A stretch of DNA of 64,000 nt from Candidatus Hecatella orcuttiae (GTDB lineage Archaea; Thermoproteota; Bathyarchaeia; Hecatellales; Hecatellaceae): the NCBI GenBank assembly GCA_002011035.2, contig MTLY02000002.1, positions 128,001 to 192,000 on the forward strand, in the 5' to 3' direction. Numbering within the stretch: position 1 is the stretch's first letter; each line of letters begins with the position of its first letter. Of the stretch, positions 21,634 to 41,813 are shown piece by piece. Under the pieces are notes generated by a model. It was not told where the DNA came from and searched no databases. It worked only from the letters and a program-made list of their open reading frames with translations. The position numbers and the translations under genes were made by a program.

Positions 21634-21737
21634 CTACCGCAAAGACAGACGCAGATACACTTCGTTCTATTTTCACCCTTATAACACCATAAATAAAGAA
21701 AACTTTACCCATAGCATTGGGCAGTTCTGTTCGAGGT

Positions 21738-26649: not shown

Positions 26650-26664
26650 CCTGACAATTAAGAG

Positions 26665-26913
26665 GTGATAAAAATGAGTGAAATAAAGAGAAGAGTTCAA
26701 GGCATAAACATGTTAGTTTGCGTCTTGGTTTCTGTGGTGATAAGCTGGATATTCTATACCCTAGCTTTGCAGATGCCCGGTAGATTCGCGCAGTACACGA
26801 AGATCGACGTACTCGCAGGTGTAGGGTTCGTCTTTATCCTTTCGATGATAATTTCTTTCTCCCTCATACCCGCATTTATGGAGAAACTGTCCGCTACGCT
26901 GAAGATAAAATAG
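26665..26913 (+). CDS. Small two-TM membrane protein
   Basis: Hydrophobic ORF with GAGGTGA RBS directly after copA. Confidence 0.6.
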   Translation: MIKMSEIKRRVQGINMLVCVLVSVVISWIFYTLALQMPGRFAQYTKIDVLAGVGFVFILSMIISFSLIPAFMEKLSATLKIK

Positions 26914-26928
26914 GCATTTATACTTTAG

Positions 26929-27573: not shown

Positions 27574-27575
27574 CT

Positions 27576-27893
27576 TTGGCGGAGAAACGTGGAAAAATGA
27601 GTTTAAAAGTAAAAGCCTTCACGTTAAGCATAGGTTTTATGATAATATATATTATTTGTGTTGCATGGGATTTAGCTTTTCCGGAGTATGCGATGTATCA
27701 GGTTTGGGCTCCCTTATTCCCGGGGTTTACATGGCTAAGCTTGTCTAGTTTTCTTCTCGGACTTTTCGAGGCCTTCATATATGGACTGCTTATCGCAGTA
27801 ATATTTGTTCCCCTCAACAATTTTTTCAACAAAAGATTCGAAGAACCAACCAGACCTCCAAAAATGGAAGAAAAGGTGAAAGTTACCAACTGA
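27576..27893 (+). CDS. DUF5676-like membrane protein
   Basis: PGFTWLS..SFLLGLFEAFIYG motif typical of heavy-metal gene clusters. Confidence 0.7.
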   Translation: MAEKRGKMSLKVKAFTLSIGFMIIYIICVAWDLAFPEYAMYQVWAPLFPGFTWLSLSSFLLGLFEAFIYGLLIAVIFVPLNNFFNKRFEEPTRPPKMEEKVKVTN

Positions 27894-28601
27894 TGACATT
27901 TGGGTGAAGATGCGTGCTTCGAGCTGGCGTTAGAGGGCCTAAAAGTGTTAGTCTATGCTTACAATCACCAGAGCGAGATTAAAGACGCAGATAAGATGGT
28001 TAAGAAGCTGTGACTCGCCGAAAACATAACTCTGGAGAGCATCCTTCAGGTCAACTTCATAGACACAGAAGTTTACAGCCTTCTGAGAAGGCTTTATCGG
28101 AAAATCCTAGTTAGCAACTCCTTAAGCAGGTTTAACACTTTTCTGATACTTTCATCTTCCATAAGAATTATCATGCTCGTATTGTAGTGGAAGTAACTCT
28201 CTTTTTTATTTATAGTCTTTCTCATGGAAGTCTTTTATTCATGAATAACAGGCTGTCTGATCGAAAGACGTTTTTGAGTTGCTACATATTTCACCAGCTA
28301 GTTTTTTCTTCTTGTGAAAAAATAGAGCAGATGATTTTTTTGAAAAATCCGTCAACATATCTCTAAATTTCTCCCAAAAGAAACGACAATTCTTATAAAA
28401 ATCTCAGAACTTCAAAAGCATAATTACGAAGTGATAGGTATTGAAGGAAGCACCAGAAAATGCTTGAGCCTGTACCTATAATGACTGTAGCTATATGTAA
28501 ATGAGCTTTTCAGGAGCGAGATTACAGATGAAAGAAAAGCAATAGTCTATCGCTATTTGGAAATGGATTATCTTTCAATCATATGAAGGTTGACAGCATC
28601 A

Positions 28602-28750
28602 TGATGCTTTCTAAAAGCAAAGCTTGGAGAGAACCAGCAGCGTCTGGTTTTGTGAGCAGCCTCGCGTTACTATTTGCATATTTTGGAATTTTAACTGTTG
28701 GCGATTCGTTCAGCCATGCCATTGAAGAATTTGCTGAAGTGTGATACTAA
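28602..28750 (+). pseudogene. Decayed membrane-protein fragment
   Basis: LALLFAYFGILTVGDSFSHAIEEFAEV ends in TGA-TAC-TAA, with no continuation. Confidence 0.35.
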
Positions 28751-28940
28751 ACTTTCCAGTAAGCTTGCGCAAAAAAGTCTGACACCGCTTGAATTTCTTC
28801 ATCTGTAAAAGTTACACCTATCTCAATAAGTCCCTGTTCATATCATCATTGTGATAGTATGACTTTACATCTATTGATCCGTCTTCAAAGACATCCCTAA
28901 CAAAACTAATCGCTCTAAAAACATTGATCTTCCCAGAGCC

Positions 28941-29147
28941 TTTAGGATAAGGGGCGACATCACCAAGGGGAAATACCAAGACTATGACACCCCAGGCGTC
29001 AACCCGGGGGAGGTTCTCACCAGAGAAGCCCTATTCCAACCAGCCAGAGTATACATAGCCCCTCAAGAACTGGAAGACCGCCAGCTGAAAGTTCTCAGCC
29101 AAGCCCTAAAGGAGACATTGAAACAGGAGCTGCTGGCAGATCGATGA
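28941..29147 (+). pseudogene. Internally deleted site-specific integrase remnant
   Basis: RIRGDITKGKYQDYDT joined to GVNPGEVLTREAL...QLKVLSQALKETLKQELL; from memory both resemble segments of archaeal tRNA-targeting tyrosine integrases; ends about 30 bp before the att repeat. Confidence 0.5.
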
Positions 29148-29178
29148 AAAAGTACCCATTCAGGTCTGGAACAGTAAG

Positions 29179-29195
29179 TCCCGGCGGCCGCACCA
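29179..29195 (+). repeat. attR-like direct repeat of the tRNA-Gly 3' end
   Basis: Exact TCCCGGCGGCCGCACCA copy. Confidence 0.85.
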
Positions 29196-29366
29196 AAACC
29201 AGCCGCTGATTCGCTGGGTTTTTTCCGCGTTCCCCGTTCTTATTTTTAAATTTCTCCTCCCTGCTTTCATCCTCGCCGAACTACGGGCCGGCTGCCTCTT
29301 ATGTTATATATGTACATATATGGCCTAGGGTAGTGAGTCTCTCTTTTCCCCGGCCCGGGGAGGACT

Positions 29367-29909
29367 TCAAGAAGTTTTTGCTTCCAGTTCTTCTAAGATT
29401 TTTTCGAGGTCTTTCTTCCAACGGTCCTCAGTGGCCGTCTGGAAGGAGAAGGTGGCGTTAGGCTGGTAGAACCTGTCTAGGGAGAGAGTTTTCAAATGGG
29501 AGGCGAAATGTTTTAGGGTTGAAAGAAGCTGGGATTGGAAGAAGTATATTCCTCCAAGAAAGACCACTAGGTCGTGGTTTCCCTCCCCCCTCAGCCCCTG
29601 CCAGTTTTCATCCCTCATCCGGTTGACCAAATCCTCTAAGCCCATGCAGGTGAGGGGGACGTCTCCAATTCTTTCCCTGAAAACCCTGAAACATCCGGGG
29701 GAAACCACAACAGGAGAACCCGTCAGCTCAGCCAGCCGGTGCACGAACTTCACCACGTCGACGTCTTCCCCCTTTGCTCCGAGCACGTTGCCTCCCACTA
29801 CTATCAGCGGCCTTTTCGCGTTTCGCAGTAGCTTAGCGGCCATCTCCGGTTTGAGGGTTAAAGCCTGCTCTAAGCCTGGAACCTCAGCCAACTGCCAAGG
29901 AGCCGCCAA
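29367..29909 (-). CDS. cdhB: CO dehydrogenase/ACS complex epsilon subunit
   Basis: AKRPLIVVG, WQGLRGEGNHDLV, LKHFA, DRFYQPNA. Confidence 0.92.
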   Translation of the reverse strand: MAAPWQLAEVPGLEQALTLKPEMAAKLLRNAKRPLIVVGGNVLGAKGEDVDVVKFVHRLAELTGSPVVVSPGCFRVFRERIGDVPLTCMGLEDLVNRMRDENWQGLRGEGNHDLVVFLGGIYFFQSQLLSTLKHFASHLKTLSLDRFYQPNATFSFQTATEDRWKKDLEKILEELEAKTS

Positions 29910-29911
29910 GT

Positions 29912-32242
29912 TTACCGCCTCCTTAACACCAGCCTATCGAGAAGGGTGGTTCCCAGCTCCGGAACAGTCTTAGGCTTCCAGCCTTGACTCCTCAAAACTG
30001 GCAGCAGCTCATCCTTCTCCAACACCGGCAGGTCGGACTCAGTTCTCACGAATAGGTGAAGGTCCTCAGGCAGGGTTCCGTAGAGTTTTCGGTATAAATC
30101 TAGGTAGTTTCTCAGCTTGATGGAGCGGCCTTTGAGGGTGTCGTTGGGCCTCATAACCAGCCGGGCGGCCAGCACGAGGGCTTCCTCCTTCGTCTCAGCC
30201 ACATACCACAGGTGCTCAGGAGCAGGGCCGGTGTACTCTTTTTCCCCGCTTCTGACGTTGTAGGGCATCCATTTTTCATCCACGTCCGGCCGGCCTAGGT
30301 AGGCCCTCCGATGGGCTACACCCTTGGGTCCGAGGATCACGGGGATTCCCAGCCTCGTCGCTCCGGTGGCAATAGCCTCCGCCTTCTGGTTCTGAGTCCC
30401 CCAGACAATGGCCACAGCGCCGATGCGGTTTAGGATGTAGTCGGCTATCTCCTCAAAATTGGCCCTAAGCTTCCGACGTGCGAAGATGTTGGCGATTTTG
30501 ACAGCTGCCCCTAAGATGTGGGCGTTGGAAACGCAGGAGCCGGTGTTGACGATGCCTCCCGCGTCGAAGCTGCCGGGGTATTTCTCGTACAGAGTCCGGC
30601 CTTCCTCGTCCTTGTAGCGGGCGATATCCATGGCGGCGCACCCCGAGGTGACAACGATGTACCGTCTTCGGGCGAATTCCTCCGCCATCTGAGCAACCTC
30701 AATGTGGCCGCGGGGGTAGTTGGAGCACCCGGCAAAGGCAACCACCCCGGGGATTTCACCCATGACAATAGGCCTGCCCACGTTTCTGATTTCCGTGTCC
30801 AGAATCGGCCCCCTTCCAGCCCTGATCTTGTACTTGGATTTTCTGATTTTTTCCATACCAGCCTCTCCGATGAGGGTGAGAACAGGGATCTTCCTCGGGC
30901 ATACGCTGTCACAGCGTCCACATCCCACGCAGAGGTCGTACACTTCGGACAGCTTGGTGAGGTTGCCCTTGGCCGCCGCCAAGACGGCTTCATCCACGGG
31001 AAGGTCGGGAACACAGACCCTCCTGCAAAGGCCGCATCCGGTGCACCGGGAGGCCTCTGCCAAGGCTGCGAGAGGCTTAAGTTCCCTCCTCCTAAGGGGG
31101 GCGATTTTGACAGCGGTGCGGACGGCAACCTCAGCAGCCTTGGAAGGGTCCAGTATGAGGACCCCCATGTTTCTGCCTGAAGCCAAGTCCTCCACAACCG
31201 CGTCCACCGGGTCCTCTGTCCGGTTGGGCAGGCCGCCGCAGACTTGGTCGATGGTGGCGATGACCCGCGTACCAGCCTTGAAGGCTTCTTCTACAATGTC
31301 GACGCGAATACATTCTTGGTCGAGGACTAGAACGTCGGCCATCCCCGTCCTGGCGATGAGCTGCTGTCTTGAAAGGTTTCCGACGATTTTGACCCCCCTG
31401 TTAAACCGGGTTAGGTCGTGGGCTGAACAGCAAACACCGCCCACTTCCACCTTATCTGAGAGGCCGGACCTAGCTAGGTATTCCACCGTCTCCACACCTG
31501 GCGCGGCGTTGTGGCCGACGAAGATGATGACGGGCTTATTCCGGTCCAGCACTCCTAGGCCTATTTCTACGTAAGGTGTTTCAGCGTCGCCTTTCGGATA
31601 TCCTAAGCCGGATATTTGAGCTATGTCCGCAACTTCCAAAGCAAGGTTATCCAGCATGCCGGCGTGGAGGGCTTTAGATTCGAAGTCTAGGTAATTCTGC
31701 TCCTGCCCTGTGAGGACGGAGGAGAGAAGCTGGGTGATCTGGTCGCCTATGTAGTCCAGCACCCCCTCCAAGTCGCCCAGCGTCTTAGGCTTTACTCCGG
31801 TGATAAGCCTCGTCAAGGGAGCCTCAATATCTATCTCCGAACCCAAATCTATGGGGTGGCTTCTCCCCAGCTTCTTGACCAAGTAGTCCACCAGATGTTT
31901 GGCGTGGGTTGTGTGGGCTGATGCGCCTACCACGCACTCGAGGAGAATGTGTCTTCCCTGCTGGGTTCGGATGTCGATGCCGCAGGCTCCTTTCCGCCCT
32001 TTGGCGAGGTCGCATTTACCGTAGCCGCAGAGGCAGCATCGGTCGCAGAGAGGCGAATAGAAGGGCTGATATTTTTTCAGCAGCTTCCAATCCCACTCCC
32101 GGAGGGAGGTTAGGGTGGGGAAGGGCGTCGGCCCTGGGGGTTCCTCCCAGTCCTCAGTAATCTGCCCGACTAGGATTTCCAATCCCTTTATTTTGGCGAG
32201 GGCTGAGTTCAGCTCTTTAACCACTATCTTGGAGTTTTTCAC
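29912..32242 (-). CDS. cdhA: Archaeal Ni-CO dehydrogenase alpha subunit
   Basis: CCLCGYGKCDL..GACG, GHN, CCS, two 4Fe-4S ferredoxin motifs, GCSN, SGCA, GSCVSN, QKA, RPND. Confidence 0.95.
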   Translation of the reverse strand: MKNSKIVVKELNSALAKIKGLEILVGQITEDWEEPPGPTPFPTLTSLREWDWKLLKKYQPFYSPLCDRCCLCGYGKCDLAKGRKGACGIDIRTQQGRHILLECVVGASAHTTHAKHLVDYLVKKLGRSHPIDLGSEIDIEAPLTRLITGVKPKTLGDLEGVLDYIGDQITQLLSSVLTGQEQNYLDFESKALHAGMLDNLALEVADIAQISGLGYPKGDAETPYVEIGLGVLDRNKPVIIFVGHNAAPGVETVEYLARSGLSDKVEVGGVCCSAHDLTRFNRGVKIVGNLSRQQLIARTGMADVLVLDQECIRVDIVEEAFKAGTRVIATIDQVCGGLPNRTEDPVDAVVEDLASGRNMGVLILDPSKAAEVAVRTAVKIAPLRRRELKPLAALAEASRCTGCGLCRRVCVPDLPVDEAVLAAAKGNLTKLSEVYDLCVGCGRCDSVCPRKIPVLTLIGEAGMEKIRKSKYKIRAGRGPILDTEIRNVGRPIVMGEIPGVVAFAGCSNYPRGHIEVAQMAEEFARRRYIVVTSGCAAMDIARYKDEEGRTLYEKYPGSFDAGGIVNTGSCVSNAHILGAAVKIANIFARRKLRANFEEIADYILNRIGAVAIVWGTQNQKAEAIATGATRLGIPVILGPKGVAHRRAYLGRPDVDEKWMPYNVRSGEKEYTGPAPEHLWYVAETKEEALVLAARLVMRPNDTLKGRSIKLRNYLDLYRKLYGTLPEDLHLFVRTESDLPVLEKDELLPVLRSQGWKPKTVPELGTTLLDRLVLRRR

Positions 32243-32311
32243 CGACCATCACCTACAATTTTTAGGGGGGTATCGAATTCCGCGGGGATTTTCTCATGAG
32301 CATTCTCTCCC

Positions 32312-32527
32312 TTACTTTGCGGCTTCCTTCAATTCTTCCACGAATTTTTGCACGTCCAACCCAAACCTTACGCAGGCTTGTTCTATGGTAGTGGAGCCGG
32401 CCATGGTTTTCCTCATCACCGGGTCCTTCAGGGGCGTGAAGCCCTTTTTCACGAAGACATCCAGAAGCTTCGGATATTTCTCCAAAACCTCTAACACCGT
32501 CATGTCTTTGCTTATTTCTATTTCCAT
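32312..32527 (-). CDS. DUF1858-domain protein
   Basis: ISKDMTVLEVLEKYP...F...TIEQAC..G.D..KFVEEL. Confidence 0.8.
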   Translation of the reverse strand: MEIEISKDMTVLEVLEKYPKLLDVFVKKGFTPLKDPVMRKTMAGSTTIEQACVRFGLDVQKFVEELKEAAK

Positions 32528-32545
32528 GCTAAACTTTCACCTCCA

Positions 32546-32869
32546 TCAACCCCTAGACGGCTTCCTAGGGGAACATTTTTTGGGGCAGTAGGTTTGAACA
32601 TGGCAGTCGACAAGCTTGAAGAGAGGCTCTAAGGTCTCCCTGTTCAGGAAGTAGACCCGTTCCTTCCACCTTCGTTCCGGAAGGACGAAGCGACATCGAA
32701 CAAGGGCTTGGAGGTTATGGGAGATCATGCTCTGACTCTGCCCCAAAGCCTTCGAGATCTGGGTGACGTTTCTGGGGCCCTCCCTCAAAAGCTCCACCAC
32801 CGCCAGCCTAGTGGGGTTGGAGAGGGCTGCGAAGAAGAAAGGACATGCCTCGCTGAGGCCGTACTTCAT
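32546..32869 (-). CDS. ArsR/SmtB-family regulator
   Basis: FFAALSNPTRL, QSMISHNL; C-terminal Cys/His residues. Confidence 0.88.
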   Translation of the reverse strand: MKYGLSEACPFFFAALSNPTRLAVVELLREGPRNVTQISKALGQSQSMISHNLQALVRCRFVLPERRWKERVYFLNRETLEPLFKLVDCHVQTYCPKKCSPRKPSRG

Positions 32870-32978
32870 TCAGCTTCCCCGACGGAGAATATTGGTATGA
32901 AAAATGTTTCATATCATATTATTTAAACATATCACAACTATCTAAAACTCAGCCTCGTCCAAGACAGCCCCTCACGGG

Positions 32979-33674
32979 TCAACTCTTTTCCTTCACATGC
33001 CTTTCCTCGGACTCCATAAACTTTTCCAGCAGAGAAGCCACGCTGGAATAATAGCCCAAAGAAGATTCTTTGCGAAGTTTACTGCAAAACTTCGGAATCC
33101 ACCAAGCCAAGTGGTCTTTGAAAAACTTCAACCCAGCCTCCCGGCATACAGCCGCCTGGTCCTTCCACCTCTTATCCAGTGCGTAGACTTCTTTGAGCAG
33201 AAGCAACCCCATGAATTCTAGCTCCGTGCAGATGAAGTCAGGCCGCTCTTTCACGGAAAGCTCAACTTTAAAGGCTCGGTAAAACCCTGAAACATCCGCC
33301 AGTTCTTTAGCTTTTATGAAGGAATGCTGACAGTAATCCGTCTCGTAGAAAGAACATTTGAGGGGAACCAAGCAGAGCCTGTTGTAGGCTGCTTCCATCT
33401 CTGCGACGGAAGACTCATCCATCTGCTCCATGAAAACCTCTAGGGCCCGGCTGAGCTCCTCCGACCCAAGCAACCCAGCGGCCTCCGAAGCCCTCCTGCG
33501 GACCTCTTCACCGCAGAGCTCTCGAATTTCACGGCGGGGGTAGGCTAAGGCCTGCGAAATCAACCTGTACAGATAGCTCCGAGCGTAGAGAACCTCTCTC
33601 TCCTCTTGCTCGGGCAGGGCGGAGGGTTGACGGCTCTCAGGGTTCGTTGAATCGGTGGATTTTGTATTTTTCAT
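32979..33674 (-). CDS. TorD/DmsD-family molybdoenzyme maturation chaperone
   Basis: LADVSGFYRAF, ERPDFICTELEFM, FFKDHL.WW. Confidence 0.9.
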   Translation of the reverse strand: MKNTKSTDSTNPESRQPSALPEQEEREVLYARSYLYRLISQALAYPRREIRELCGEEVRRRASEAAGLLGSEELSRALEVFMEQMDESSVAEMEAAYNRLCLVPLKCSFYETDYCQHSFIKAKELADVSGFYRAFKVELSVKERPDFICTELEFMGLLLLKEVYALDKRWKDQAAVCREAGLKFFKDHLAWWIPKFCSKLRKESSLGYYSSVASLLEKFMESEERHVKEKS

Positions 33675-34752
33675 CGTAAAACGGCCTTATGTAGGTTGGT
33701 TCTTCCAAGGAAACCCTTATGACCTCGTTTCCCCCGGAATCATAGGCTACAACTTCCTTGGAGGTAGGTTTAAACTTGGAAATTATTCTCTGCGTCGTCC
33801 CGAAAAGACGAAGCACGGCGAAGAGGGTTGAGTCTAGGTTGGTCCGTTTCCTTATAGCCGCCTCAACCCCCGGGCCGAACATTTGGGTTAGGAAGTCCCT
33901 AGGAACCCAGCGGGGCGGTATATAGTAGACGTTAGGCTCCAGTCCGAACTGCGGATAGAGGGGAAGCGCCACCTTCTCCACATGCACCAGGTAGTCGATG
34001 GGGTTGCTGGGGTCAACCTTTTCCGGGGGGTTCAGAAAGCCTTGAAGCCTGATCTTCCCTACGCAAGTGGCAACGCAGCGGGGGATGGTTCCCTCCTCCA
34101 CCCTCGGATAGCAGGCTATGCATTTTTCACTCCGCCCCGTGTACTCCCTGTATAGAGATTTTTTGTAGGGACAGGCTTCAACGCATTTTTTGAAGCCCCC
34201 GCATCGGTTTTGATCTATGAGGACGATGCCGTCTTCCTCCCGCTTGTAGATGGCCTTCCGAGGACAGGAAGCCAAACAGGCGGGGTAGGTGCAGTGGTTG
34301 CAGATTCTTTGGAGGTAGAACATCCAGTTTTGATGGACGGGAAGCTCAACGGTGGAAGACCAGCCGGTGGGAGTGTCCTCGTAAATGTTAGGAAACCTCC
34401 ACTCAGGCTCCGAGGGCATGAAGCCTAAGGCAATAGCACCCTCCGGCCTCGCTTCAAAGATGGTCTTACCGGTGTACACGCCGTTCTCCCAGCTCTGGGT
34501 TCCCAGCATCTCCAAGATCCGGTGGTCCCAGAACTGGGGGTAGCCGCCGTAGGGTTTTGTTTCCACGTTGTTCCACCACATGTACTCCTGCCCTTTGTCG
34601 AAGGTCCATGTGGACTTGCAGGACATGGTGCACGTCTGGCAGCCGATGCAGCGGTTGATGTCGAAGACTGCGGCGAACTGCTTTTTAGGCCTTTTACCTT
34701 CGTAGAGGTATTCCATCTCCCTTCCAATCTGCCAGTTGTAGACTTTAGCCAC
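33637..34752 (-). CDS. NXR/periplasmic NAR-type beta (Fe-S) subunit, NxrB/NarH-like
   Basis: VYNWQIGR start, CIGCQTC..SC, GQEYMWWNNVETKPYGGYP, CNHCTYPACLASCP, CVEACPY, CIACYPR. Confidence 0.92.
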   Translation of the reverse strand: MAKVYNWQIGREMEYLYEGKRPKKQFAAVFDINRCIGCQTCTMSCKSTWTFDKGQEYMWWNNVETKPYGGYPQFWDHRILEMLGTQSWENGVYTGKTIFEARPEGAIALGFMPSEPEWRFPNIYEDTPTGWSSTVELPVHQNWMFYLQRICNHCTYPACLASCPRKAIYKREEDGIVLIDQNRCGGFKKCVEACPYKKSLYREYTGRSEKCIACYPRVEEGTIPRCVATCVGKIRLQGFLNPPEKVDPSNPIDYLVHVEKVALPLYPQFGLEPNVYYIPPRWVPRDFLTQMFGPGVEAAIRKRTNLDSTLFAVLRLFGTTQRIISKFKPTSKEVVAYDSGGNEVIRVSLEEPTYIRPFYDEKYKIHRFNEP

Positions 34753-37700
34753 GGATGAATCCTCCTCGCAGATACTTCTTCATCGCCTCGCTTTCATTAC
34801 CGGGAGTGAAGCCTGTTTGAGCAGGCTCCCATGTGTCCGCTCCGTCTAGGCTGCCGTTCTCGGCGAAGGAAATCTTCACCAAGGACTCTTTCGGAGCGCC
34901 GGTGACGGAGCAGACGTCGACCAGATAGCCTTTGCCTATTTTATGGGTGAAGTAGTCCTTCCGCACTAGGCTGTCGGTCATCTGGGTGGGGTTCAGCCAT
35001 GCGCGGACAACACTCTGCTGGGAGCCGTATCGGAGGCTGGGAGGATAACCTGTGTCCGTGACAGCCAACCCGTCGGCTTTCGTCTCATGAGCCTCCACAG
35101 ACCTGTGGGTGGCTCCGTAGATTCCGTGGTAGATGATGGTGAAACCCCGAGGGAGGGAGGGATTGTATCGGGCTCTGATTTTCAGCCGGGAAACCTTGTA
35201 GAAGGGGTCCCCTTTGTTCCAGCCTCGGTAGGGACGGTCTCGGGGGTTGCCGTCCACGTAGACGTAGTCGCCGTCTTTGATGCCCCGCTCCTTAGCGTCC
35301 TCAGGGTTGATGTCTAGTTCTTCCTCCCCCACCCAAGGGGTGCGCTTGTCCATGCGGTAGGGGTCGCCGAAGTTGCTGGCCCAGATGACGTTCCAGTCCA
35401 CGGTGCTCCAAGAAGAGTGAACCCTATGCCTAGGCTTGGGGGTTATGCAGATGAGGTCTAAGCCGTCTTTGTCCAGCAGCGGATTCCTCGTCTTAAGCAT
35501 CTCCTCCGTGGTCAGCTTAACATGCCTGACGGTCATTTCCTCCACATTCAGCGACTCCCAGTCGACTCCGTGGTCTTTCGGCTCGATGGCCCTGAAGCCC
35601 TTCGGGGCGACGATGGCGCTGGGCAGGTAGGGGGTTGACTCCATGGGCTCCCGGTGGACTATGAGGTTTTCCCCTTGGTCTAAGAACTCGTCTTCCTCCC
35701 GGTAGAACTCCAAGCGGCCTGTCCTGGTGTAGAAGGGTTTACTTTCTTGAACTTGCTCCCATCCGGGAATCCGAGGGTAGGTTCTAAAGAGGGCGAGGAA
35801 TCCCTTTTCCGCAGAGAGCATTTCGTAGATGTTGTAACCTCGGGTGGTGGTGCCGCAGTCCAGAATTCTTTGGAGGTATACCTCTACTTTCCCTTCTTTC
35901 ACAAATTTCCAGTGGAGAACAAACCGCTCATCGCCGGTTATTTTGGCGAGGGCGGAGGCCACGCCTGCGTAGACTTCTATATCATGCTTGGTGTCATGAA
36001 CAGAGTTCATCCCTTTGGGGAACAGTTGGATGAAGGGGTTGGTGCAGGAAGCTGTCATGTCCGGGTAGGATAATTCCGTCCAAGCCTCAACAGGGAACAC
36101 CACATCCGCATACTCGCAGTTCATGTTCCATTCGAAATCCTGCGCTATGTAGAGCTCCTGCTTTGGCAGAACGTTTTTGATGGTGTCGTAGTGCCATTTG
36201 CACACACCCAGCAGGTTAGCGTTGACAGCCCAAACCAGCTTGGTGGGGCTGGGCATGTGCGTCTTGCCTGTCAGGACAACCCTGCCAAACTTCGGGCTGT
36301 TTACTATCAGAGGACTGTCTCCGTAGTTCCAGTAGTGGATGGATTCGAATTTTATGTAGGCCTTCTTCTTAACGTCGCGGCCGTCGACGTCGGGGGATAA
36401 TGTCTGATTGAAGGGGTCCTCCACCACGTAGCAGGGGAGATTCAGGATGGGGGCCTTGTAGTTTCCCGCGTAGCTTCCCACGTTTCCCCCAGGTTTACCG
36501 ATGTTCCCCGTTAAGCTGGCGACGAGGAAGTAGGCGCGGTTGATGAGATCGTTGTGGAAATACATGTTCATACCCATGCCGCAGAGGAAACCCACCGACC
36601 CCGCTGAGGCTATGTCCCGAGCCAACCGGATGAGCATATCCTTGGGGACGTTGGTGATCTTTTCCACGTTCTCCGGTGTGTACTCCTCCGTCAGCTCCTT
36701 GTAAAGGCGGAAAATGGTCTTCACGCCGACGGTTTCTCCGCCCTTCACCGTCACCGTGCCTTTCCAGTCTAATTCTAGGTCGTCGACGCTCAGCCCTAAG
36801 GCCTGAAGCTGCTGGGCGAGATGCTCCCCCACAGCCGTGCGGCTGACCCCCACAAGCCGGCCGTCTTTGCTTCTCATCACCGCGTAGGTTTTCAGCTCCT
36901 CAGGCATTTCTTGGACAGGCTTGCCGTCGGCGTAGACGAAGGTTTCTCCGGGGTCCAAGGAGAGAGGCTTAGGGTGAGGCTCATCCTGCCGGAGTAGTTT
37001 CTTGGTGTCCTCCCTGACCAGAAGAGGCATATCGGTGAATTTTTTCACGAAGTCCTCCTTGTAGAGGGCTTCCCGGATTATCACGTGAGCTAGGCCGAGC
37101 ATGAGGGCTGTGTCGGTGCCGGGGCGGATGCCAATCCAGTAGTCGGCTTTTGTGGCGGTGGGGCTGTATTCGGGAGCTATGACCACTATCTTTTTCTTCT
37201 TATCGATGCGGGACTGCCACCAAGAGGCATCGGCCATCTTGTTTTGGATCAGGTTCAACCCTGAGATGACGAGCATGTCAGAGTTCCAGAAGTCGTTGAA
37301 CTCCTGGTCGAAGGTCTGAACCCCGTGAACCATGGGGTGCCCCGGAGGCAGGTCGGTGTGCCAGGCGTAGTTGTCCCAAGTCCTAGCTCCCACCGATCCC
37401 TCAGGGCCTTTACCCCTGAGGTAGTTGTCCAGCAGAGCCAGCATGTTGGCAAACCGGTACATGCCAGCCAGCCTAGTGGCTCCTAAGAAGGCCATTCCAC
37501 CTCGGAGCTTAAACGTCCTAACTCCCGCCATCTCGCCTGAAGGGTCTAGGGAAGCTTCAATCATCTCCTCCGGGTAACCCTGCCTCCTGAGGAGCTCTGC
37601 TCCCGAGGGGCCGCTGTAGGTTTGGGCGATGTTCACCATGGCTTTAGCCACCAATTCAAAGGCTTCATCCCAAGAGACCCTCACCCAGTCGTCGACGCCT

Positions 37701-38209
37701 CTTCGGAAATATTCCTTCGGAGGCCTGCCATTCTCATCCCGGGGGAAGCCTGCGTTAACCCAGTTCAGCCAGCCCTTTCTGACTAGGGGGTATTTCACTC
37801 TAAAAGGGCTGTAAACTCGCTTCATGAAGGTCAGCCCCTTTAGGCAGCCTCTCGGATGCCATGTAGGCGTAGCCTTGTTGCCGTAGATGTCCTGATACTC
37901 GGCGACATCGTAGGCTTGCTCGATCCTGACTATCACCCCGTTTCGGACGAAGGCTCTCAGCCGGCAGTTGTGAGTGTCGTTGGGCGCGCAGACGAAGGTG
38001 AAGGATGAGTCATACCGGTATTGGTCCCTGTAGAGTTTTTCCCAGTCTCTCTCCGGGTAGGCGGCTAGAGGGTTGTCTACCTTTACTGGTTTTAGGAAGC
38101 GGAACATCAAATCCGCGGTGGTGAGTTGGGAGGCGACGTAGAAGCTGCCTACAGCCGCAGCGGTCACAGCCGCCATTTTCATGAAATCTCTTCTACTGGA
38201 ATTTTTCAT
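34745..38209 (-). CDS. Tat-exported type II DMSO-reductase-family molybdoenzyme, NxrA/NarG-like alpha subunit
   Basis: SRRDFMK Tat signal, VDNPL..YP.R.WE..YRDQY.YD, FS0 motif CAPNDTHNC...PRGCLKG, WHTDLPPGHP Mo-ligand Asp region. Confidence 0.93.
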   Translation of the reverse strand: MKNSSRRDFMKMAAVTAAAVGSFYVASQLTTADLMFRFLKPVKVDNPLAAYPERDWEKLYRDQYRYDSSFTFVCAPNDTHNCRLRAFVRNGVIVRIEQAYDVAEYQDIYGNKATPTWHPRGCLKGLTFMKRVYSPFRVKYPLVRKGWLNWVNAGFPRDENGRPPKEYFRRGVDDWVRVSWDEAFELVAKAMVNIAQTYSGPSGAELLRRQGYPEEMIEASLDPSGEMAGVRTFKLRGGMAFLGATRLAGMYRFANMLALLDNYLRGKGPEGSVGARTWDNYAWHTDLPPGHPMVHGVQTFDQEFNDFWNSDMLVISGLNLIQNKMADASWWQSRIDKKKKIVVIAPEYSPTATKADYWIGIRPGTDTALMLGLAHVIIREALYKEDFVKKFTDMPLLVREDTKKLLRQDEPHPKPLSLDPGETFVYADGKPVQEMPEELKTYAVMRSKDGRLVGVSRTAVGEHLAQQLQALGLSVDDLELDWKGTVTVKGGETVGVKTIFRLYKELTEEYTPENVEKITNVPKDMLIRLARDIASAGSVGFLCGMGMNMYFHNDLINRAYFLVASLTGNIGKPGGNVGSYAGNYKAPILNLPCYVVEDPFNQTLSPDVDGRDVKKKAYIKFESIHYWNYGDSPLIVNSPKFGRVVLTGKTHMPSPTKLVWAVNANLLGVCKWHYDTIKNVLPKQELYIAQDFEWNMNCEYADVVFPVEAWTELSYPDMTASCTNPFIQLFPKGMNSVHDTKHDIEVYAGVASALAKITGDERFVLHWKFVKEGKVEVYLQRILDCGTTTRGYNIYEMLSAEKGFLALFRTYPRIPGWEQVQESKPFYTRTGRLEFYREEDEFLDQGENLIVHREPMESTPYLPSAIVAPKGFRAIEPKDHGVDWESLNVEEMTVRHVKLTTEEMLKTRNPLLDKDGLDLICITPKPRHRVHSSWSTVDWNVIWASNFGDPYRMDKRTPWVGEEELDINPEDAKERGIKDGDYVYVDGNPRDRPYRGWNKGDPFYKVSRLKIRARYNPSLPRGFTIIYHGIYGATHRSVEAHETKADGLAVTDTGYPPSLRYGSQQSVVRAWLNPTQMTDSLVRKDYFTHKIGKGYLVDVCSVTGAPKESLVKISFAENGSLDGADTWEPAQTGFTPGNESEAMKKYLRGGFIRG

Positions 38210-38688
38210 GACATTTCACTCTCCATTCTGATGTATTCTGTTTCCTTCGCAGGGAAACCTTGGGTGGTTTTGTCGCTCATATGCTCCTTACTGCAAGCAA
38301 ACCAGCAGCCTTCTTCAGGAGGCTTGTCCACGTAAAACAGGGCATCTTTTCTGCACCCGGGGTGGAAGCATTTCACCCTAGATCGAGCCGCCCTTTTCCT
38401 CCGAGCGATTTCCACCATCTCGTCGGCTATTCGCCTTTTCTCCCCGAACAGGAACATGGTGAAAATCGAATGCTCATCTGGGAGACTGACAACTCGAAGG
38501 GAAAGAGGCTCCTTAAACTTCAGAGGCTCTTCCGCAGGTTTTAGGATGAAACTGTATCCTCCGGAACGGTAAAGAGGCTCCGTTTCCCCCCGGGGGATGA
38601 GGAAGTCGGGAAACGCGTAGAGGAGGTACTTTTTCTCCTTCAGCATTATTTCTCTCCTGTAGAGCTTGCCCTCCACCACTCCCTTCAC
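38206..38688 (-). CDS. Hypothetical protein with C-terminal Cys/His metal-binding motif
   Basis: CFHPGC...CWFACSKEH; overlaps the alpha-subunit start (translational coupling). Confidence 0.6.
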   Translation of the reverse strand: MKGVVEGKLYRREIMLKEKKYLLYAFPDFLIPRGETEPLYRSGGYSFILKPAEEPLKFKEPLSLRVVSLPDEHSIFTMFLFGEKRRIADEMVEIARRKRAARSRVKCFHPGCRKDALFYVDKPPEEGCWFACSKEHMSDKTTQGFPAKETEYIRMESEMS

Positions 38689-39090
38689 CTACTCCACGAC
38701 AGTTATTTTCCCCACCATGGACTGATGGCCTTCGCTGCAGAAGACACTGCAACGGAAGGTGAAAGTGCCTGTTTCCTCTGGGACAAATTCTATGACTGCC
38801 TTATGCCCGGGGGCAATGGGCCCGCTGTCTAACCCTAAATCTGGAACATGAAATCCGTGGGTTACGTCGGCGCTTGTGATGATCAGCTTCGCCGGCACAC
38901 CTTTCCGGAGGGTTATCTCACTCGGAGACCAGCCGCCGTTTTCCGCCGCCCAGCCTGTAATCCAGACGACTTGAACCTCTTCATCCAATTTTTGGGCATC
39001 AAGCCAGAGGTCATAGCCGTAGATCGACGCAGAGGGCACCAGCAAAACGGCTACGAGAAGTGCTAAGGCTGCCCATTCTGTCTGGTTCAC
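38689..39090 (-). CDS. Membrane-anchored CuA cupredoxin (COX subunit II-like domain)
   Basis: N-terminal TM helix; DVTHGF...CSVFCSEGHQSM CuA ligand set. Confidence 0.88.
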   Translation of the reverse strand: MNQTEWAALALLVAVLLVPSASIYGYDLWLDAQKLDEEVQVVWITGWAAENGGWSPSEITLRKGVPAKLIITSADVTHGFHVPDLGLDSGPIAPGHKAVIEFVPEETGTFTFRCSVFCSEGHQSMVGKITVVE

Positions 39091-39097
39091 CGTTTTT

Positions 39098-40558
39098 TCA
39101 CCCCATGAAAAGCCATAGGAAGATCATGCTGACGAAGGTCAGAAATACTACTTGAGGGAGAAAGGCCTTCAACGCTGCCTTGCCTTCTGGAAAGTTCTGC
39201 TTGGCGAGGCGGTAGGAGTATTTTATGGAGTAGGCAAGACCCACGGCTAAGACTATGCTTTGCAGGTAGGGAATAACCGCGGGAATCAAGGGGGTCCAAG
39301 GAACATAGAGACCGCTGAAAACATTCCAACCCAAACCAACCGGGTCTAGGAGGGCGTTGACTATATAGGACCAGTTGACCAGCAGAAGGGGGATGCTGAA
39401 GGCTATCCAAGCCATGAGGGCTAGGGGAATCAGCTCGTAGGAGAAGTCTATGAACAGCTTTTTAAGGGGCACAGACCTGACCCCGGAAGCCAGCTTAGAA
39501 GCGCCTGTAAACAGGAAGAAAACGGAGGGTGTGACCGCCAACGATAGGCCCCAAAAGATTCCCACGTAGGGAAGGAACCCTCCGACGCCTGTCAGCGCCC
39601 AACCGTAGGGGGGTGCCCAGAAAACATTGGACCAGTCTTTCAACACACCCCAAGGACCTTGCATTACCAGGATGTAGAGCCCAGCCAACGTCAGCATGAT
39701 GAAAGATTTCCAAGCCTCATCTAAGGCTCTGCCCGTTTTCGCCAGAATATCCCCTCCAAACGAGCGTAGGTTGAGGGCTAGGTTGTTGTAGGGGCAGGTC
39801 TTGATGCATTCGAAGCAGAGGCCGCAGTAGTTGTTCCTCTCCAAGCCTCCTGGGTAGATTATCCAAGGACATCCGTAGCCGTTGTCGTTTCCCCTCACGC
39901 ATTCCTTGGTCATGTGGTTGCGGCAGAGGGTTTTGTCCTTAGGCCTCAGCTCTAAGGCGGAGAACATGGAAAACAACCCCAAGAAGCCGCCCACAGGGCA
40001 GATGAACCTACAGAAAACCCTCCTCGAATATATCAACACCAGAAAAACGGGTACTACAAAAAGAATTAGCAACACTATGGCTGTCACAACTGGCCTGGTT
40101 ACCAAGAGGGCGCTGAAGGTGGCGATGGCTAGGAAGCCTAGGTTCTGAAGCCAGATGTTGTTCAACTTGGAAGGCCAAGGCTTCCTGAGGCTTAGGTACT
40201 TGAACGCGCTACGCTTTTTCACCAGCGCCCGTCTTTCCAGCCACTCTCCGAAGGCGGGGAGGGGGCACATGGTGCACCAGATCCGGGAGAGGAGGGGAAC
40301 CATGAGGACGATGAGGGCGAACCACCAGAGGATCCAGACGAAGACGATGGAGATGTTCCTGTTCCCCACGGGGGAACCGAAGAATCCTGAAAGGATGATA
40401 ACCCAGAAAACGAAAAGGTTAACCATCATGGCAGCGTACTGGAAGGCTCTGTGCTTCAGCAGCCTGTTGATGATGCCTATTTGGAGAAGGTCAAACTTGC
40501 CTCTGTGGAGGATGAGGCTGGAGAAGAAATCTCTAACATGCCACCGAGTTGCCGCCAA
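39098..40558 (-). CDS. Polytopic 4Fe-4S membrane protein (NapH/NosR-like)
   Basis: Two CxxxCP motifs (WCTMCP variant, FCRFICP), C..C..GCP and CGLCFECIKTCP; many TM helices. Confidence 0.88.
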   Translation of the reverse strand: MAATRWHVRDFFSSLILHRGKFDLLQIGIINRLLKHRAFQYAAMMVNLFVFWVIILSGFFGSPVGNRNISIVFVWILWWFALIVLMVPLLSRIWCTMCPLPAFGEWLERRALVKKRSAFKYLSLRKPWPSKLNNIWLQNLGFLAIATFSALLVTRPVVTAIVLLILFVVPVFLVLIYSRRVFCRFICPVGGFLGLFSMFSALELRPKDKTLCRNHMTKECVRGNDNGYGCPWIIYPGGLERNNYCGLCFECIKTCPYNNLALNLRSFGGDILAKTGRALDEAWKSFIMLTLAGLYILVMQGPWGVLKDWSNVFWAPPYGWALTGVGGFLPYVGIFWGLSLAVTPSVFFLFTGASKLASGVRSVPLKKLFIDFSYELIPLALMAWIAFSIPLLLVNWSYIVNALLDPVGLGWNVFSGLYVPWTPLIPAVIPYLQSIVLAVGLAYSIKYSYRLAKQNFPEGKAALKAFLPQVVFLTFVSMIFLWLFMG

Positions 40559-40560
40559 TC

Positions 40561-41019
40561 TCAGTCGCCCCTACGCCAAACGTAGGCCGTCGCAGCTAGA
40601 ACAACCCCCACCAAGCCGAAGGCCGCTCCTAGGAAGGCGATGTTCACTCCGCTGCGCAACACTATGAACTCACCTACCATGAAAGGGTGGAGGGCCCCGC
40701 AAGTTTCGCTGCACCTGATCTTGAACTTTCCAGGGGTATCAGCCACAACAGTCACAGTCTGAGTCTCCCCCGGAATTATCCGCACATCCACATCGTAGCC
40801 GTCGATGTAGAAACCGTGAGTCACATCCACGGTTTCAAGCACAAAGACCACCGTGTCGCCCTGGTTTACCACCACCCTACCGGGCTCGTAGGCAAACTGG
40901 CGGGCGGTGATGTGAACGGTTACTACTTCCCCTCCTGAAGCCGAAGGCGCGTAGAATAAGGCGGCGAAAACGATGAGTAGAGTGAACCATGCTCCGGCGA
41001 GAAGCTGGCGTTTCAACAA
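40561..41019 (-). CDS. Second membrane-anchored CuA cupredoxin
   Basis: DVTHGF...CSETCGALHPFM; N- and C-terminal TM helices; TTG start after GGAGGT. Confidence 0.88.
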   Translation of the reverse strand: MLKRQLLAGAWFTLLIVFAALFYAPSASGGEVVTVHITARQFAYEPGRVVVNQGDTVVFVLETVDVTHGFYIDGYDVDVRIIPGETQTVTVVADTPGKFKIRCSETCGALHPFMVGEFIVLRSGVNIAFLGAAFGLVGVVLAATAYVWRRGD

Positions 41020-41070
41020 GGGAACCTCCCGACATAGACTGACTGCAGGTCTTTTTACGGTGGGAGATTT

Positions 41071-41199
41071 ATAACAATTGTGATATAAATAATTTACGAT
41101 GTATATAGACAGATTTACACCCAATTCATAACAGCAACATCCAACAATCCTTTCGAAAAAAAGCCAAGAATTATATAGCAAAACCATAACAATAGTGAT
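41071..41199. promoter_or_regulatory. Two imperfect palindromic operator-like sites in a divergent promoter
   Basis: ATAACAATTGTGAT (41071-41084) and ATAACAATAGTGAT (41186-41199) next to TATA-like tracts. Confidence 0.5.
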
Positions 41200-41237
41200 G
41201 TTGATCAACCCCAGCCGGTTAAAACGGTGGGAAAAAC

Positions 41238-41639
41238 ATGATTCCCGTCTGCGAACTTTCCATGAGATACGTCATCCCTACCATAAGGGCAGCTCTCACG
41301 GGAAGACTGAGGGAGAAATACCGTCTGAAGCAGGAGGACATATCTAGGCTACTGCGAATAAGACAATCGGCGGTAAGCCAGTATCTCACTGGAAAAAGAG
41401 GCGTTCGGCTGAGGATCCAACGCGACCGGGAGGTCCAAGTCCTCCTAGACAGCATAGCCGGGAGGCTGAAGAGGAGAAATCTCAGTAGCTCTGAGCTGAT
41501 GAGAGAGCTCTGCCGAGCTTGCACGCTCATCCGTTCGAAAAAAATGGTATGCGGGCTACATAAAAGCCTAGATGAAGATGTCCCACCTGACTGCGCTCTT
41601 TGCCTAAGCGGCAAGAGCCTTTGCAACGTGAAAATCTAA
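41238..41639 (+). CDS. HTH transcriptional regulator (COG2522-like) with Cys-rich tail
   Basis: PVCE...VIPTIRA, Q..I...L...QSAVSQYL.GKRG, C..C...C.LH...C..C. Confidence 0.85.
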   Translation: MIPVCELSMRYVIPTIRAALTGRLREKYRLKQEDISRLLRIRQSAVSQYLTGKRGVRLRIQRDREVQVLLDSIAGRLKRRNLSSSELMRELCRACTLIRSKKMVCGLHKSLDEDVPPDCALCLSGKSLCNVKI

Positions 41640-41728
41640 AAGGGCGCCATTTTCTCGGGGAAAGGGAGAGAAGATTACTCTGGTTGTTGATAAGCCATCA
41701 GGGCTGAGGGTTTGGGATTCTTCGAAAG

Positions 41729-41813
41729 TGCGGGGGGAGGGATTTGAACCCTCGAACCCCTTCGGGACAGGATCCTGAATCCTGCGCCTTTGACCATGCT
41801 TGGCGACCCCCGC
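41729..41813 (-). tRNA. tRNA-Leu(CAG)
   Basis: GCGGGGG acceptor stem, CAGGA-TTCAGGA-TCCTG anticodon arm, long variable arm; CCA not encoded. Confidence 0.93.

Follow-up and report, generated by a model that had tools for sequence, protein, structure and literature searches.

A putative NXR-type nitrate reductase with an upstream cupredoxin/NapH-like module and no gamma subunit in a member of the Bathyarchaeia

Introduction

What would a member of the Bathyarchaeia do with an enzyme of the nitrite oxidoreductase (NXR) type, and to which electron carriers would such an enzyme be wired? Bathyarchaeia belong to the most numerous archaea of the subsurface. In parts of two published accounts they are modelled as fermenters or acetogens (PMC7565565, PMC9635834). 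NXR/Nar-type genes have previously been noted in Halobacteria, Nitrososphaerales, and Caldarchaeales, according to portions of two further papers (PMC12806544, PMC10547907). None of these accounts reports an NXR-type or NarG enzyme in Bathyarchaeia; PMC9635834 names the NXR structure paper only among its references, and its supplement may discuss NXR in related subsurface archaea.

Here, we focus on a 64,000-nucleotide stretch of Candidatus Hecatella orcuttiae (positions 128001-192000 of contig MTLY02000002.1, which we call C2). This whole stretch is referred to as the window. It carries, on the minus strand, a seven-gene cluster that encodes an NXR-type nitrate/nitrite enzyme, exported by the twin-arginine translocation (Tat) system and facing outward, which probably serves this anaerobic bathyarchaeon as a respiratory nitrate reductase. 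The type of enzyme is read from the proteins themselves, and the direction of the reaction from the genomic context.

Organization of the locus

The seven open reading frames (ORFs) of the cluster lie between 32979 and 41208, all on the minus strand, and abut or overlap; we take them as one operon. The order of the genes is cupredoxin type 1, NapH-like protein, cupredoxin type 2, orf160, NxrA, NxrB, and chaperone. The original prediction had placed the system at 32979-38209, a range that holds the last three genes of the operon; the four upstream genes at 38206-41208 had been missed. It is these upstream cupredoxin, NapH-like, and orf160 genes, together with the absence of a gamma subunit, that are the unusual features of the locus, and both had escaped the earlier description.

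The catalytic subunit

The NxrA-like molybdopterin catalytic subunit (34745-38209, minus strand, 1154 aa, P0001) begins with MKNSSRRDFMKMAAV. An SRRDFMK twin-arginine motif occupies residues 5-11 and scores 23.0 bits with NCBIfam TIGR01409, above the cut-off of 16.7, and 21.8 bits with Pfam TAT_signal, slightly below the cut-off of 22.7. TatC is encoded in the host genome. When all PDB sequences are searched, residues 6-1153 align to Kuenenia NxrA (7b04_B) with 1133 bits (E=0), followed by perchlorate reductase PcrA at 200 bits, E. coli NarG at 149-154 bits, and ethylbenzene dehydrogenase at 144 bits.

The iron-sulfur (FeS) cluster FS0 is predicted to be held by C74, D78, C82, and C122, the first three of which lie in the motif CAPNDTHNC at residues 74-82. 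Asn77, Cys82, Cys122, and Asp286 occur in 127 of 127 aligned sequences, E. coli NarG included. Cys74 is present in 126 of the 127, the position being His in E. coli NarG alone, and Asp78 is present in 115. These residues can be compared with the NXR of Kuenenia stuttgartiensis (KsNXR). According to the available portion of the structural account (PMC8387239), FS0 of KsNXR is bound by three Cys and Asp71, Cys67 stands at the position of a His in nitrate reductase (NAR) and ethylbenzene dehydrogenase (EBDH), and, in the A subunit, Asn70 is directed towards the substrate and Asp275 is the Mo ligand. Window residues Cys74, Asn77, Asp78, and Asp286 fall at the positions of KsNXR Cys67, Asn70, Asp71, and Asp275, respectively.

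By each sequence feature tested, NxrA is in the periplasmic NXR-type clade, and its sequence specifies a molybdenum-bis(pyranopterin guanine dinucleotide) site (Asp286, Asn77) and an FS0 cluster with three Cys and one Asp. The original prediction of a 1154-aa alpha subunit with a Tat signal and a C-x3-D-x3-C FS0 motif, distinct from that of classical NarG with its His, is therefore sound. Its attribution of these signatures to the periplasmic NXR clade agrees with the similarity to Kuenenia NXR, the FS0 ligand set, and the NarG-rooted tree described below.

The iron-sulfur subunit and the chaperone

The NxrB-like iron-sulfur subunit (33637-34752, minus strand, 371 aa, P0002) reads VAKVYNWQIGR... 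and includes GQEYMWWNNVETKPYGGYP, so that the VYNWQIGR start and the GQEYMWWNNVETKPYGGYP segment attributed to the beta subunit earlier are both present in the 371-aa ORF. Its 15 Cys fall into four groups (4+4+3+4), a pattern that specifies four further FeS clusters. The subunit scores 443 bits with Kuenenia NxrB (7b04_A) and 226 bits with PcrB. Counted from the YNWQ motif, it has 368 residues, and gamma-bearing relatives have 372 and 379; the subunit is not shortened. The third gene of this part of the operon encodes a NarJ/TorD-family assembly chaperone (32979-33674, minus strand, 231 aa, P0003), which matches Pfam Nitrate_red_del (1.7e-16).

For NxrA the top NCBIfam model is TIGR03479, that of the type II subfamily, with 345.1 bits against a cut-off of 984.75; the narG model TIGR01580 gives 185.3 bits against a cut-off of 1084.15. 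NxrB scores 266.8 bits with TIGR03478 (2.1e-79; cut-off 480.7), and the chaperone 76.5 bits with TIGR03482 (2.7e-21; cut-off 152.3). Since alpha, beta, and chaperone all score far below the cut-offs of the type II models, they are placed outside the Ebd/Ser/Clr/Pcr set that those models describe.

These scores bear on whether the enzyme acts on another oxyanion (chlorate, perchlorate, or selenate) or on a non-nitrogen substrate. Enzymes of the type II dimethyl sulfoxide reductase family change substrate between close branches. The subclade of window NxrA has no characterised member, and the type II subfamily model TIGR03479 is the top NCBIfam match. However, PcrA and ethylbenzene dehydrogenase score far under the NXR of Kuenenia, the nitrate-coordinating Asn77 and the Mo-ligand Asp286 are kept in every aligned sequence, and downstream nitrogen-oxide enzymes are encoded in the genome (see below). 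A substrate other than nitrate or nitrite is thus unlikely. On the chlorate that the original prediction named as an alternative, the evidence speaks neither for nor against.

Phylogeny and rarity of NxrA

The NxrA tree was built from 79 of 80 related genome loci (one fell below the filter of 1000 residues and no X), 37 close and 7 named database proteins, the protein of a bathyarchaeial genome of another family (G060), and E. coli NarG as the root. Columns with at least 30% gaps were trimmed, and FastTree was run with LG+G on 126 sequences; a second run of 127 sequences included a metagenome sequence. PcrA, ClrA, SerA, and EbdA are not among the sequences of the tree, and their exclusion rests on the PDB bit scores given above.

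As the original prediction would have it, the alpha subunit falls inside the NXR-type clade, a group of 98 leaves with support 1.0. Within this group, window NxrA belongs to a subclade of 43 sequences (support 1.0) whose named members are metagenome-assembled genomes (MAGs) of Chloroflexi, Anaerolineae, Dehalococcoidia, SAR202, Phycisphaerae, Planctomycetaceae, and 'Nitrospinae', together with one MAG labelled Brocadiaceae. Its sister is a metagenome protein, P0008 (support 0.99). The loci of Brocadia/Brocadiaceae, Nitrospiraceae/Nitrospirota, Nitrospinota (L025), and Methanoperedens are in other subclades, at patristic distances of 1.45-1.50 from window NxrA, those of the three bacterial groups being 1.46-1.50; the nearest relatives are at 0.58. 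Anammox NxrA loci are 46-47% identical to window NxrA. The NxrA of this locus is thus not a member of the nitrite-oxidiser lineages; by its sequence it sits apart from them, in a subclade where Chloroflexi and SAR202 are strongly represented. The membership proposed earlier, in the clade of the NXR of Nitrospira, Nitrospina, and anammox bacteria, stands; as a refinement, window NxrA falls neither within those lineages nor beside Methanoperedens NarG.

Archaeal NxrA proteins occur at seven separate places in the tree, of which window NxrA is one. The others are G060 together with a metagenome locus (L108), Methanoperedens, Halobacteriales, Hydrothermarchaeaceae, Geothermarchaeales, and Thermoplasmata. 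Homologues are rare among the relatives of the host: at E<=1e-100, a search with window NxrA gave a homologue in a single genome out of 300 others drawn from the class, and in 0 of 13 from the same family. The one positive genome, G060, has an NxrA 48% identical to that of the window (45% by blastp) in an ordinary locus, with the order NxrA-NxrB-gamma-chaperone. No cupredoxin, NapH-like gene, or orf160 was found in 28 kb around the G060 NxrA.

The missing gamma subunit

The haem-b gamma subunit was sought with an Orf7/NxrC profile, for which Methanoperedens Orf7 and sequences related to it were used. This profile matches 66 of the 80 related loci. A search of six-frame ORFs of the host's own genome, which is 97.1% complete, gave a best match of E=0.18 with this profile and no match with PF09459 (EB_dh). 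Judged by its gene content, the locus lacks the gamma subunit of an NXR-ABC holoenzyme.

Loss of the gamma subunit in a haem-free host was considered as an explanation and is ruled out, as the genome encodes CcmF, CcmC, and CcmE, HemA, cytochrome b, 17-haem and 7-haem cytochromes c, and a haem-copper enzyme.

The upstream copper and iron-sulfur module

The place that a gamma subunit might have filled may be taken by the products of the upstream genes. Cupredoxin type 1 (40561-41208, minus strand, P0128) is 215 aa as the longest ORF, and its start codon is probably downstream of the longest-ORF start. It matches Pfam COX2 and Cupredoxin_1 and the CuA domain model of NosZ, TIGR04246 (5.3e-18), and hydropathy indicates an N-terminal signal or transmembrane (TM) segment and a C-terminal TM anchor. 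Like 6 orthologues beside NxrA homologues, it retains the ligand pattern VTHGF...C-x3-C-x3-H-x2-M. Cupredoxin type 2 (38689-39090, minus strand, 133 aa, P0126) matches Pfam Cupredoxin_1 and COX2 and the CoxB model TIGR02866 (4.2e-15), has an N-terminal TM anchor, and likewise keeps the CuA ligand pattern. The CuA ligands are intact in every trio cupredoxin aligned.

Between the two lies the gene of a NapH/NosR-like membrane polyferredoxin (39098-40558, minus strand, 486 aa, P0127; Pfam Fer4_5), with about nine hydrophobic or TM segments, two CxxCP motifs, and a C-x2-C-x2-C-x3-CP ferredoxin motif. It scores 29.9 bits (3.9e-7) with the NapH/MauN subfamily of NCBIfam, below the cut-off of 213. 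A NapH-like protein flanked by both cupredoxin types was found by BLAST in 6 of the 80 related loci (L012, L021, L030, L031, L062, and L084). One of them, L062, is that of Methanoperedens, with the order NarG-NarH-NarJ-Orf7-cupredoxin-NapH-cupredoxin. This agrees with the published order NarG-NarH-NarJ-Orf7-HCOII-NapH-HCOII (HCOII, haem-copper oxidase subunit II), whose seven genes all show high transcription in a culture that reduces nitrate (Arshad et al. 2015, PMC4683180). The Methanoperedens NapH-like protein carries five additional C-terminal helices, and the role of the set was left open (PMC4683180).

A second module of this kind lies on another contig of the assembly (C3:472200-476000; L105 10235-13993), among housekeeping genes and with no molybdoenzyme adjoining. 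It consists of a 657-aa fusion of an N-terminal CuA cupredoxin and a NapH-like protein, then a CuA cupredoxin, and then a His/Glu-rich repeat protein. The fusion joins a type-1 cupredoxin to a NapH-like protein and is a paralogue of the operon genes. Such a fusion argues that the cupredoxin and the NapH-like protein work as one complex.

A conserved small protein, orf160

The gene directly upstream of NxrA encodes orf160 (38206-38688, minus strand, 160 aa, P0004), a small conserved protein with no Pfam or NCBIfam match. It has no signal peptide or TM segment, and near its C terminus it carries a Cys3-His motif (C107, C112, C132, and H136). HMMER searches of 1.84 billion representatives gave 12 relatives, 29-47% identical, which have in common the motifs LPDEQS, GEKR, and CF-x2-GC...W-x-ACS-x2-H. 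Despite the lack of a family match, orf160 is, judged by this conservation, a real protein. One relative is named as coming from a Nitrososphaerales MAG, and a search of 400 further genomes taken from the phylum gave no homologue.

The gene order around these relatives repeats that of the window. All four metagenome loci with an orf160 relative show cupredoxin-NapH-cupredoxin-orf160 in window order, and in three of them (L107, L108, and L109) NxrA follows directly. The remaining locus, on a 1.68-Mb contig (L106), has the module alone. That contig carries two orf160 paralogues, and no NxrA adjoins the module. A module without NxrA suggests that it may serve partners other than NXR.

The flanking genes of L106 and L108 are 26-59% identical to host genes, with five of the L108 genes in window order. 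With the Nitrososphaerales relative, this similarity makes the orf160-type loci look archaeal. The NxrA of L108 belongs to another lineage, being 48.5% identical to window NxrA and sister to that of G060 (support 1.0). The NapH-like protein of the window is 62, 54, and 55% identical to the copies in L106, L108, and L109, respectively, and 41-47% identical to bacterial and Methanoperedens copies (43% for Methanoperedens). As the NapH-like protein is thus closest to these three loci and NxrAB belongs to a lineage rich in Chloroflexi, the cluster looks to be of two sources, with NxrAB from the Chloroflexi/SAR202-rich lineage and the cupredoxin-NapH-cupredoxin-orf160 module from an archaeal lineage.

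The fold of orf160 was modelled with good confidence by AlphaFold2 (pLDDT 86.8, pTM 0.71). The model gave no PDB match at E<=0.001 (best Foldseek match 0.47), the best Z in a wide VIA-align comparison was 4.3, and a comparison with a protein atlas yielded neither a score over 0.82 nor a structure of use. When the NapH-like protein and orf160 were predicted as a complex, the ipSAE was 0.54, the top of 3 controls being 0.11. Contact agreement between runs was at least 87%, and the pLDDT of the partner was at least 74. Of 80 solved complexes, 58 pass the ipSAE mark used here, as do 2 of 110 mismatches; those that pass with values of at most 0.60 comprise just 7 of the 80 solved complexes, and both mismatches. 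The predicted complex lends weak support to a partnership of the two proteins.

The conserved module also bears on whether the locus is a decaying or non-functional acquisition, in which NxrAB without a gamma subunit cannot connect to a respiratory chain. Such a reading would account for a gamma subunit that is absent from a 97%-complete genome and present in 66 of 80 related loci, and for an NxrA that is rare in the class and absent from 13 of 13 family relatives. Against this, all seven ORFs are intact and the cofactor ligands are all conserved, the composition of the operon is fully ameliorated, and the order cupredoxin-NapH-cupredoxin-orf160-NxrA recurs in 3 other contigs with a different NxrA lineage. 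Moreover, the identical locus is found in contigs of several independent runs (see below). Decay is accordingly quite improbable.

Host genome and soundness of the contig

The genome that holds the locus amounts to 1.75 Mb in three contigs, at a completeness of 97.1% and a contamination of 4.25%. Contig C2 is 481 kb long and carries an archaeal 16S gene. Elongation factor 2 (EF-2), encoded on C3, shares 77-80% identity with proteins that bear the names Candidatus Bathyarchaeia, Bathyarchaeota, and Candidatus Hecatellaceae. Within the window, the DnaG primase, 3 kb upstream of tRNA-Leu and 4 kb from the locus, is 65-73% identical to the DnaG of 13 of 13 genomes of the same family. EF-2, DnaG, and 16S together identify the host as an archaeon of the Bathyarchaeia. 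Archaeal genes stand on both flanks of the operon, including CdhAB, DnaG primase, an archaeal glyceraldehyde-3-phosphate dehydrogenase, and an Hvo_1808-family surface protein. In tetranucleotide composition, the operon ranks at the 26th-51st percentile when all 5-kb windows of the genome are compared.

Independent assemblies contain the same sequence. One contig of 11,141 nt, from a run that bears no flag as a possible source, spans window positions 29936-41075 with 0 differences, and a 25.7-kb contig from another run covers 27500-41757. Among the datasets listed for the locus, none was of RNA. CdhA through the operon is thus bridged by contigs of two runs from different studies. Both contigs end at tRNA-Leu(CAG) (41728-41813, minus strand), which bounds the operon upstream and where depth jumps tenfold; depth is equal on either side of this break (305.8 vs 306; 17.1 vs 14).

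One might still suppose that a bacterial fragment was mis-joined or mis-binned into an archaeal genome, because the closest NxrA homologues are bacterial (Chloroflexi) and because the bin holds two different archaeal 16S sequences. The archaeal flanks and the family-wide DnaG matches, the typical composition, the bridging contigs of two studies, the equal depth across the tRNA break, and the 481-kb contig with its archaeal 16S all speak against this, and we regard it as extremely improbable. In particular, archaeal flanks, typical composition, and independent contigs refute a bacterial chimera, one of the outcomes by which the original prediction was to be judged.

The second 16S sequence is a fragment at C3:4-640 that is 87-91% identical to the gene at C2:464353-466521. 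The C2 gene contains an insert of about 665 nt. The two sequences reflect either a contig-end artefact or a mixed bin. A recent island at tRNA-Leu was also considered and rejected; no direct repeat of the tRNA-Leu end occurs in 13500-42000, and the composition is typical.

Respiratory context and direction of the reaction

Direction is the part of the question that NxrA itself does not answer. KsNXR catalyses both reactions, as stated in the available portion of PMC8387239; direction is therefore unreadable from the NxrA sequence, just as the original prediction had held, and none of the sequence features tested tells oxidisers from reducers. Its ranking of nitrate reduction over nitrite oxidation is matched by the evidence of context.

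About 30 kb before the window, C2:88001-98200 (L101) encodes CcmF, a CcmC-like and a CcmE-like protein, a cytochrome b561-like protein, 17-haem and 7-haem cytochromes c, and HemA. The 7-haem cytochrome has an NrfA-like domain (Pfam Cytochrom_C552, 1.2e-33; best PDB match 6i5b, 3e-35). The genome has a single COX1-family protein (C2:55013-56476; locus C2:54500-56500, L098), which among PDB entries is most similar to Thermus ba3. Asp stands at the position of the Thermus ba3 CuB ligand His233, and likewise at that of Tyr237, and its partner subunit II reads ...IRSTEYSGPYHPHM and has no CuA Cys. gNOR, a putative quinol-dependent nitric oxide (NO) reductase family, is a B-family relative with Asp in place of a CuB His and a subunit II without CuA ligands (PMC11214002). 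On these three sequence features the haem-copper enzyme is provisionally gNOR-like. Cytochrome bd was not found in the host genome, and no O2 reductase with a complete catalytic site was found in this 97%-complete genome. COX1, COX2, Cytochrom_C552, and CcmF_C had no match in 13 family relatives, so that, among the family genomes compared, the respiratory set is carried by this lineage alone. Matches to NosZ in the host genome are only of the size of a CuA domain.

This context can be set against the opposite direction, in which NxrAB is a nitrite oxidoreductase that oxidises nitrite outside the membrane and passes electrons to the CuA cupredoxins. From these the electrons would move on to a terminal acceptor or, as anammox bacteria have it, enter a reverse flow that serves CO2 fixation. 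The clade and the 3Cys/1Asp FS0 signature are common to proven nitrite oxidisers, and a haem-copper enzyme is encoded on the same contig. CuA centres have a high potential and are suited to take electrons from NXR. But the catalytic Tyr and one CuB His are missing from the haem-copper enzyme, a search for cytochrome bd gave nothing, and the carbon metabolism of the host is of an anaerobe type with CdhAB, an enzyme of the Wood-Ljungdahl pathway. Moreover, NxrA lies outside the anammox, Nitrospira, and Nitrospina lineages, and Methanoperedens, the only characterised organism with the trio, reduces nitrate. Nitrite oxidation is therefore rather unlikely here.

Several observations nevertheless weigh against a respiratory nitrate reductase. 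As noted above, the sequence of NxrA is silent on direction. The closest relatives of NxrA, 61-68% identical, are from MAGs of Chloroflexi, Anaerolineae, and SAR202 and are themselves uncharacterised. With the gamma subunit absent, the enzyme might be incomplete, or a different partner, for example the multihaem cytochromes, might take its place. A CXXCK motif is missing from the NrfA-like cytochrome, and the NO-forming nitrite reductases NirK and NirS have no match in the host genome; the provisional standing of the gNOR assignment, made on three sequence features, belongs on the same side, as do the two 16S sequences of the bin. As for quinone biosynthesis, the host genome gave no match for MqnA/D, and for MenA 52 bits against a cut-off of 102. 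No clear quinone pathway being found, a quinol donor for the NapH-like protein is unsupported.

A further putative reductase is encoded in the same genome. C3:19700-23000 (L005) encodes a Tat-signalled Psr/Phs-like molybdoenzyme of 864 aa, followed by a 4Fe-4S subunit; it matches the PhsA model at 2.2e-73, below the cut-off. On sequence, it is a second candidate periplasmic respiratory reductase.

A model of electron flow

In the nitrate-reducing direction that we favour, the cluster would operate as follows. By its sequence, the NarJ-like protein puts the cofactor together before export. Electrons would reach NxrB from the upstream 9-TM NapH-like polyferredoxin and the two membrane-anchored CuA cupredoxins, and the cytoplasmic orf160 may be joined to this NapH/cupredoxin module. 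The ultimate donor could be quinol or a cytoplasmic low-potential carrier. The nitrite formed would then pass to the NrfA-like multihaem cytochrome, and NO to the gNOR-like enzyme, both encoded on the same contig.

A bolder and more tentative proposal, possible though doubtful as it stands, is a haem-independent wiring. The NapH-like protein, the two CuA cupredoxins, and orf160 would replace the gamma subunit and feed NxrB directly, perhaps from a cytoplasmic low-potential donor; with CdhAB, the oxidation of CO or acetyl-CoA would be coupled to nitrate respiration. A cytoplasmic donor rather than quinol is suggested by the failure to find a quinone pathway. The link to an electron donor drawn from the neighbouring CdhAB genes is speculative.

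Comparison with known systems

The NXR-ABC of Kuenenia stuttgartiensis (7B04; Chicano et al. 2021, PMC8387239, as described in part of that paper) resembles the window enzyme in its full-length similarity (alpha 1133 and beta 443 bits), Tat export, FS0 with three Cys and an Asp, substrate Asn, Mo-ligand Asp, and TorD/NarJ-like chaperone. It differs in that the window cluster is without the NXR-C haem-b subunit and NXR-T, that window NxrA belongs to another subclade and has cupredoxins, a NapH-like protein, and orf160 as neighbours, and that the host is an archaeon without an anammoxosome, in which the opposite direction is likely.

The Nar operon of 'Candidatus Methanoperedens' also belongs to an archaeal host and encodes a Tat-signalled NXR-type NarG, NarH, and NarJ, as well as two HCO-II-like CuA cupredoxins around an extended NapH-like protein. 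Its NarG, however, is 47% identical to window NxrA and in another subclade, and the trio lies downstream there and upstream in the window operon. Orf7 is present there and absent here, whereas orf160 was not found in the Methanoperedens locus. Given the common trio, the window enzyme would by analogy work most like the Methanoperedens nitrate reductase.

E. coli NarGHI, a respiratory nitrate reductase that faces the cytoplasm, is of the same superfamily and likewise built on an alpha-beta-chaperone logic; the substrate Asn and the Mo-ligand Asp are common to both, as are three of the FS0 Cys positions. Unlike the window enzyme, its NarG is without outward Tat export, FS0 has His in place of Cys74 and Cys in place of Asp78, and NarI provides a dihaem quinol-oxidising anchor; the similarity is 149-154 bits. 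PcrAB (4YDD) and EbdABC (2IVF) are alike in having a Tat-exported alpha subunit, a four-cluster beta subunit, and a dedicated chaperone, and it is their models (TIGR03479, TIGR03478, and TIGR03482) that fit best. In contrast to members of this set, the window proteins score below the cut-offs of those models and reach 200 and 144 bits in the PDB comparison, and an EbdC-like gamma subunit is absent from the window operon.

The upstream module finds its closest counterparts in the NapGH quinol dehydrogenase and in the electron input of NosR/NosZ-CuA. The NapH-like protein has the CxxCP and 4Fe-4S motifs (Fer4_5), and the cupredoxins are nearest to the NosZ/CoxB CuA domain. Unlike those systems, the window module is accompanied by no NapG, NapAB, or NosZ, and the NapH-like protein has about five extra TM helices.

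Neighbouring features of the window

Directly downstream of the operon is an ArsR/SmtB-family regulator (32546-32869, minus strand, P0005; NF033788, 65 bits, cut-off 55), the connection of which is positional only. Then follow, on the same strand, CdhA (29912-32242, minus strand), a divergent second copy, and CdhB of the same pair (29367-29909, minus strand); CdhAB matches Pfam Prismane and CO_dh. CdhAB thus adjoins the operon, in line with the original description of a CdhAB-bearing host. The divergent CdhA is 53-56% identical to CdhA of the family and 56% identical to the C3 copy of the same genome; its nearest named homologues, 61-66% identical, are in 'Nitrososphaerales archaeon' MAGs.

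Further downstream lies a low-GC island at 16058-29195 (GC 0.40-0.45; tetranucleotide composition at the 87th-97th percentile). Its bounds are copies of the 3' end of tRNA-Gly (16058-16074 and 29179-29195, identical in 17 of 17 nt), and a third copy is at 18113-18129. Among the genes it carries are those of a CopA-type copper ATPase (24082-26649), two Lrp/AsnC-TRASH regulators, NadA, DUF7714, and a glycosyltransferase; a scan of 7 ORFs gave no integrase. The island looks like one or two elements integrated at tRNA-Gly. Elsewhere in the window, 60375-61574 encodes a sulfate adenylyltransferase (NF003166, 532 bits, over the cut-off).

Significance

The main interest of the locus is its proposed gamma-less, copper-based wiring together with the respiratory make-up of the host. 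The genome combines an NXR-type nitrate reductase, as we read it, with CuA cupredoxins, a gNOR-like enzyme, multihaem cytochromes, and Ccm, a set lacking in 13 family relatives. Respiratory nitrogen cycling by a bathyarchaeon thereby becomes a concrete hypothesis, and the sequence is present in subsurface and marine samples. For annotation, it is noteworthy that 'nxrA/narG' calls in archaeal MAGs conceal several independent acquisitions, since archaeal sequences occupy at least seven places in the tree. In terms of bioenergetics, an arrangement that lacks gamma sets the cupredoxin-NapH-cupredoxin module apart and adds orf160 as a conserved orphan partner. If true, the haem-independent wiring would join the oxidation of CO or acetyl-CoA to nitrate respiration in a class otherwise modelled as fermentative or acetogenic.

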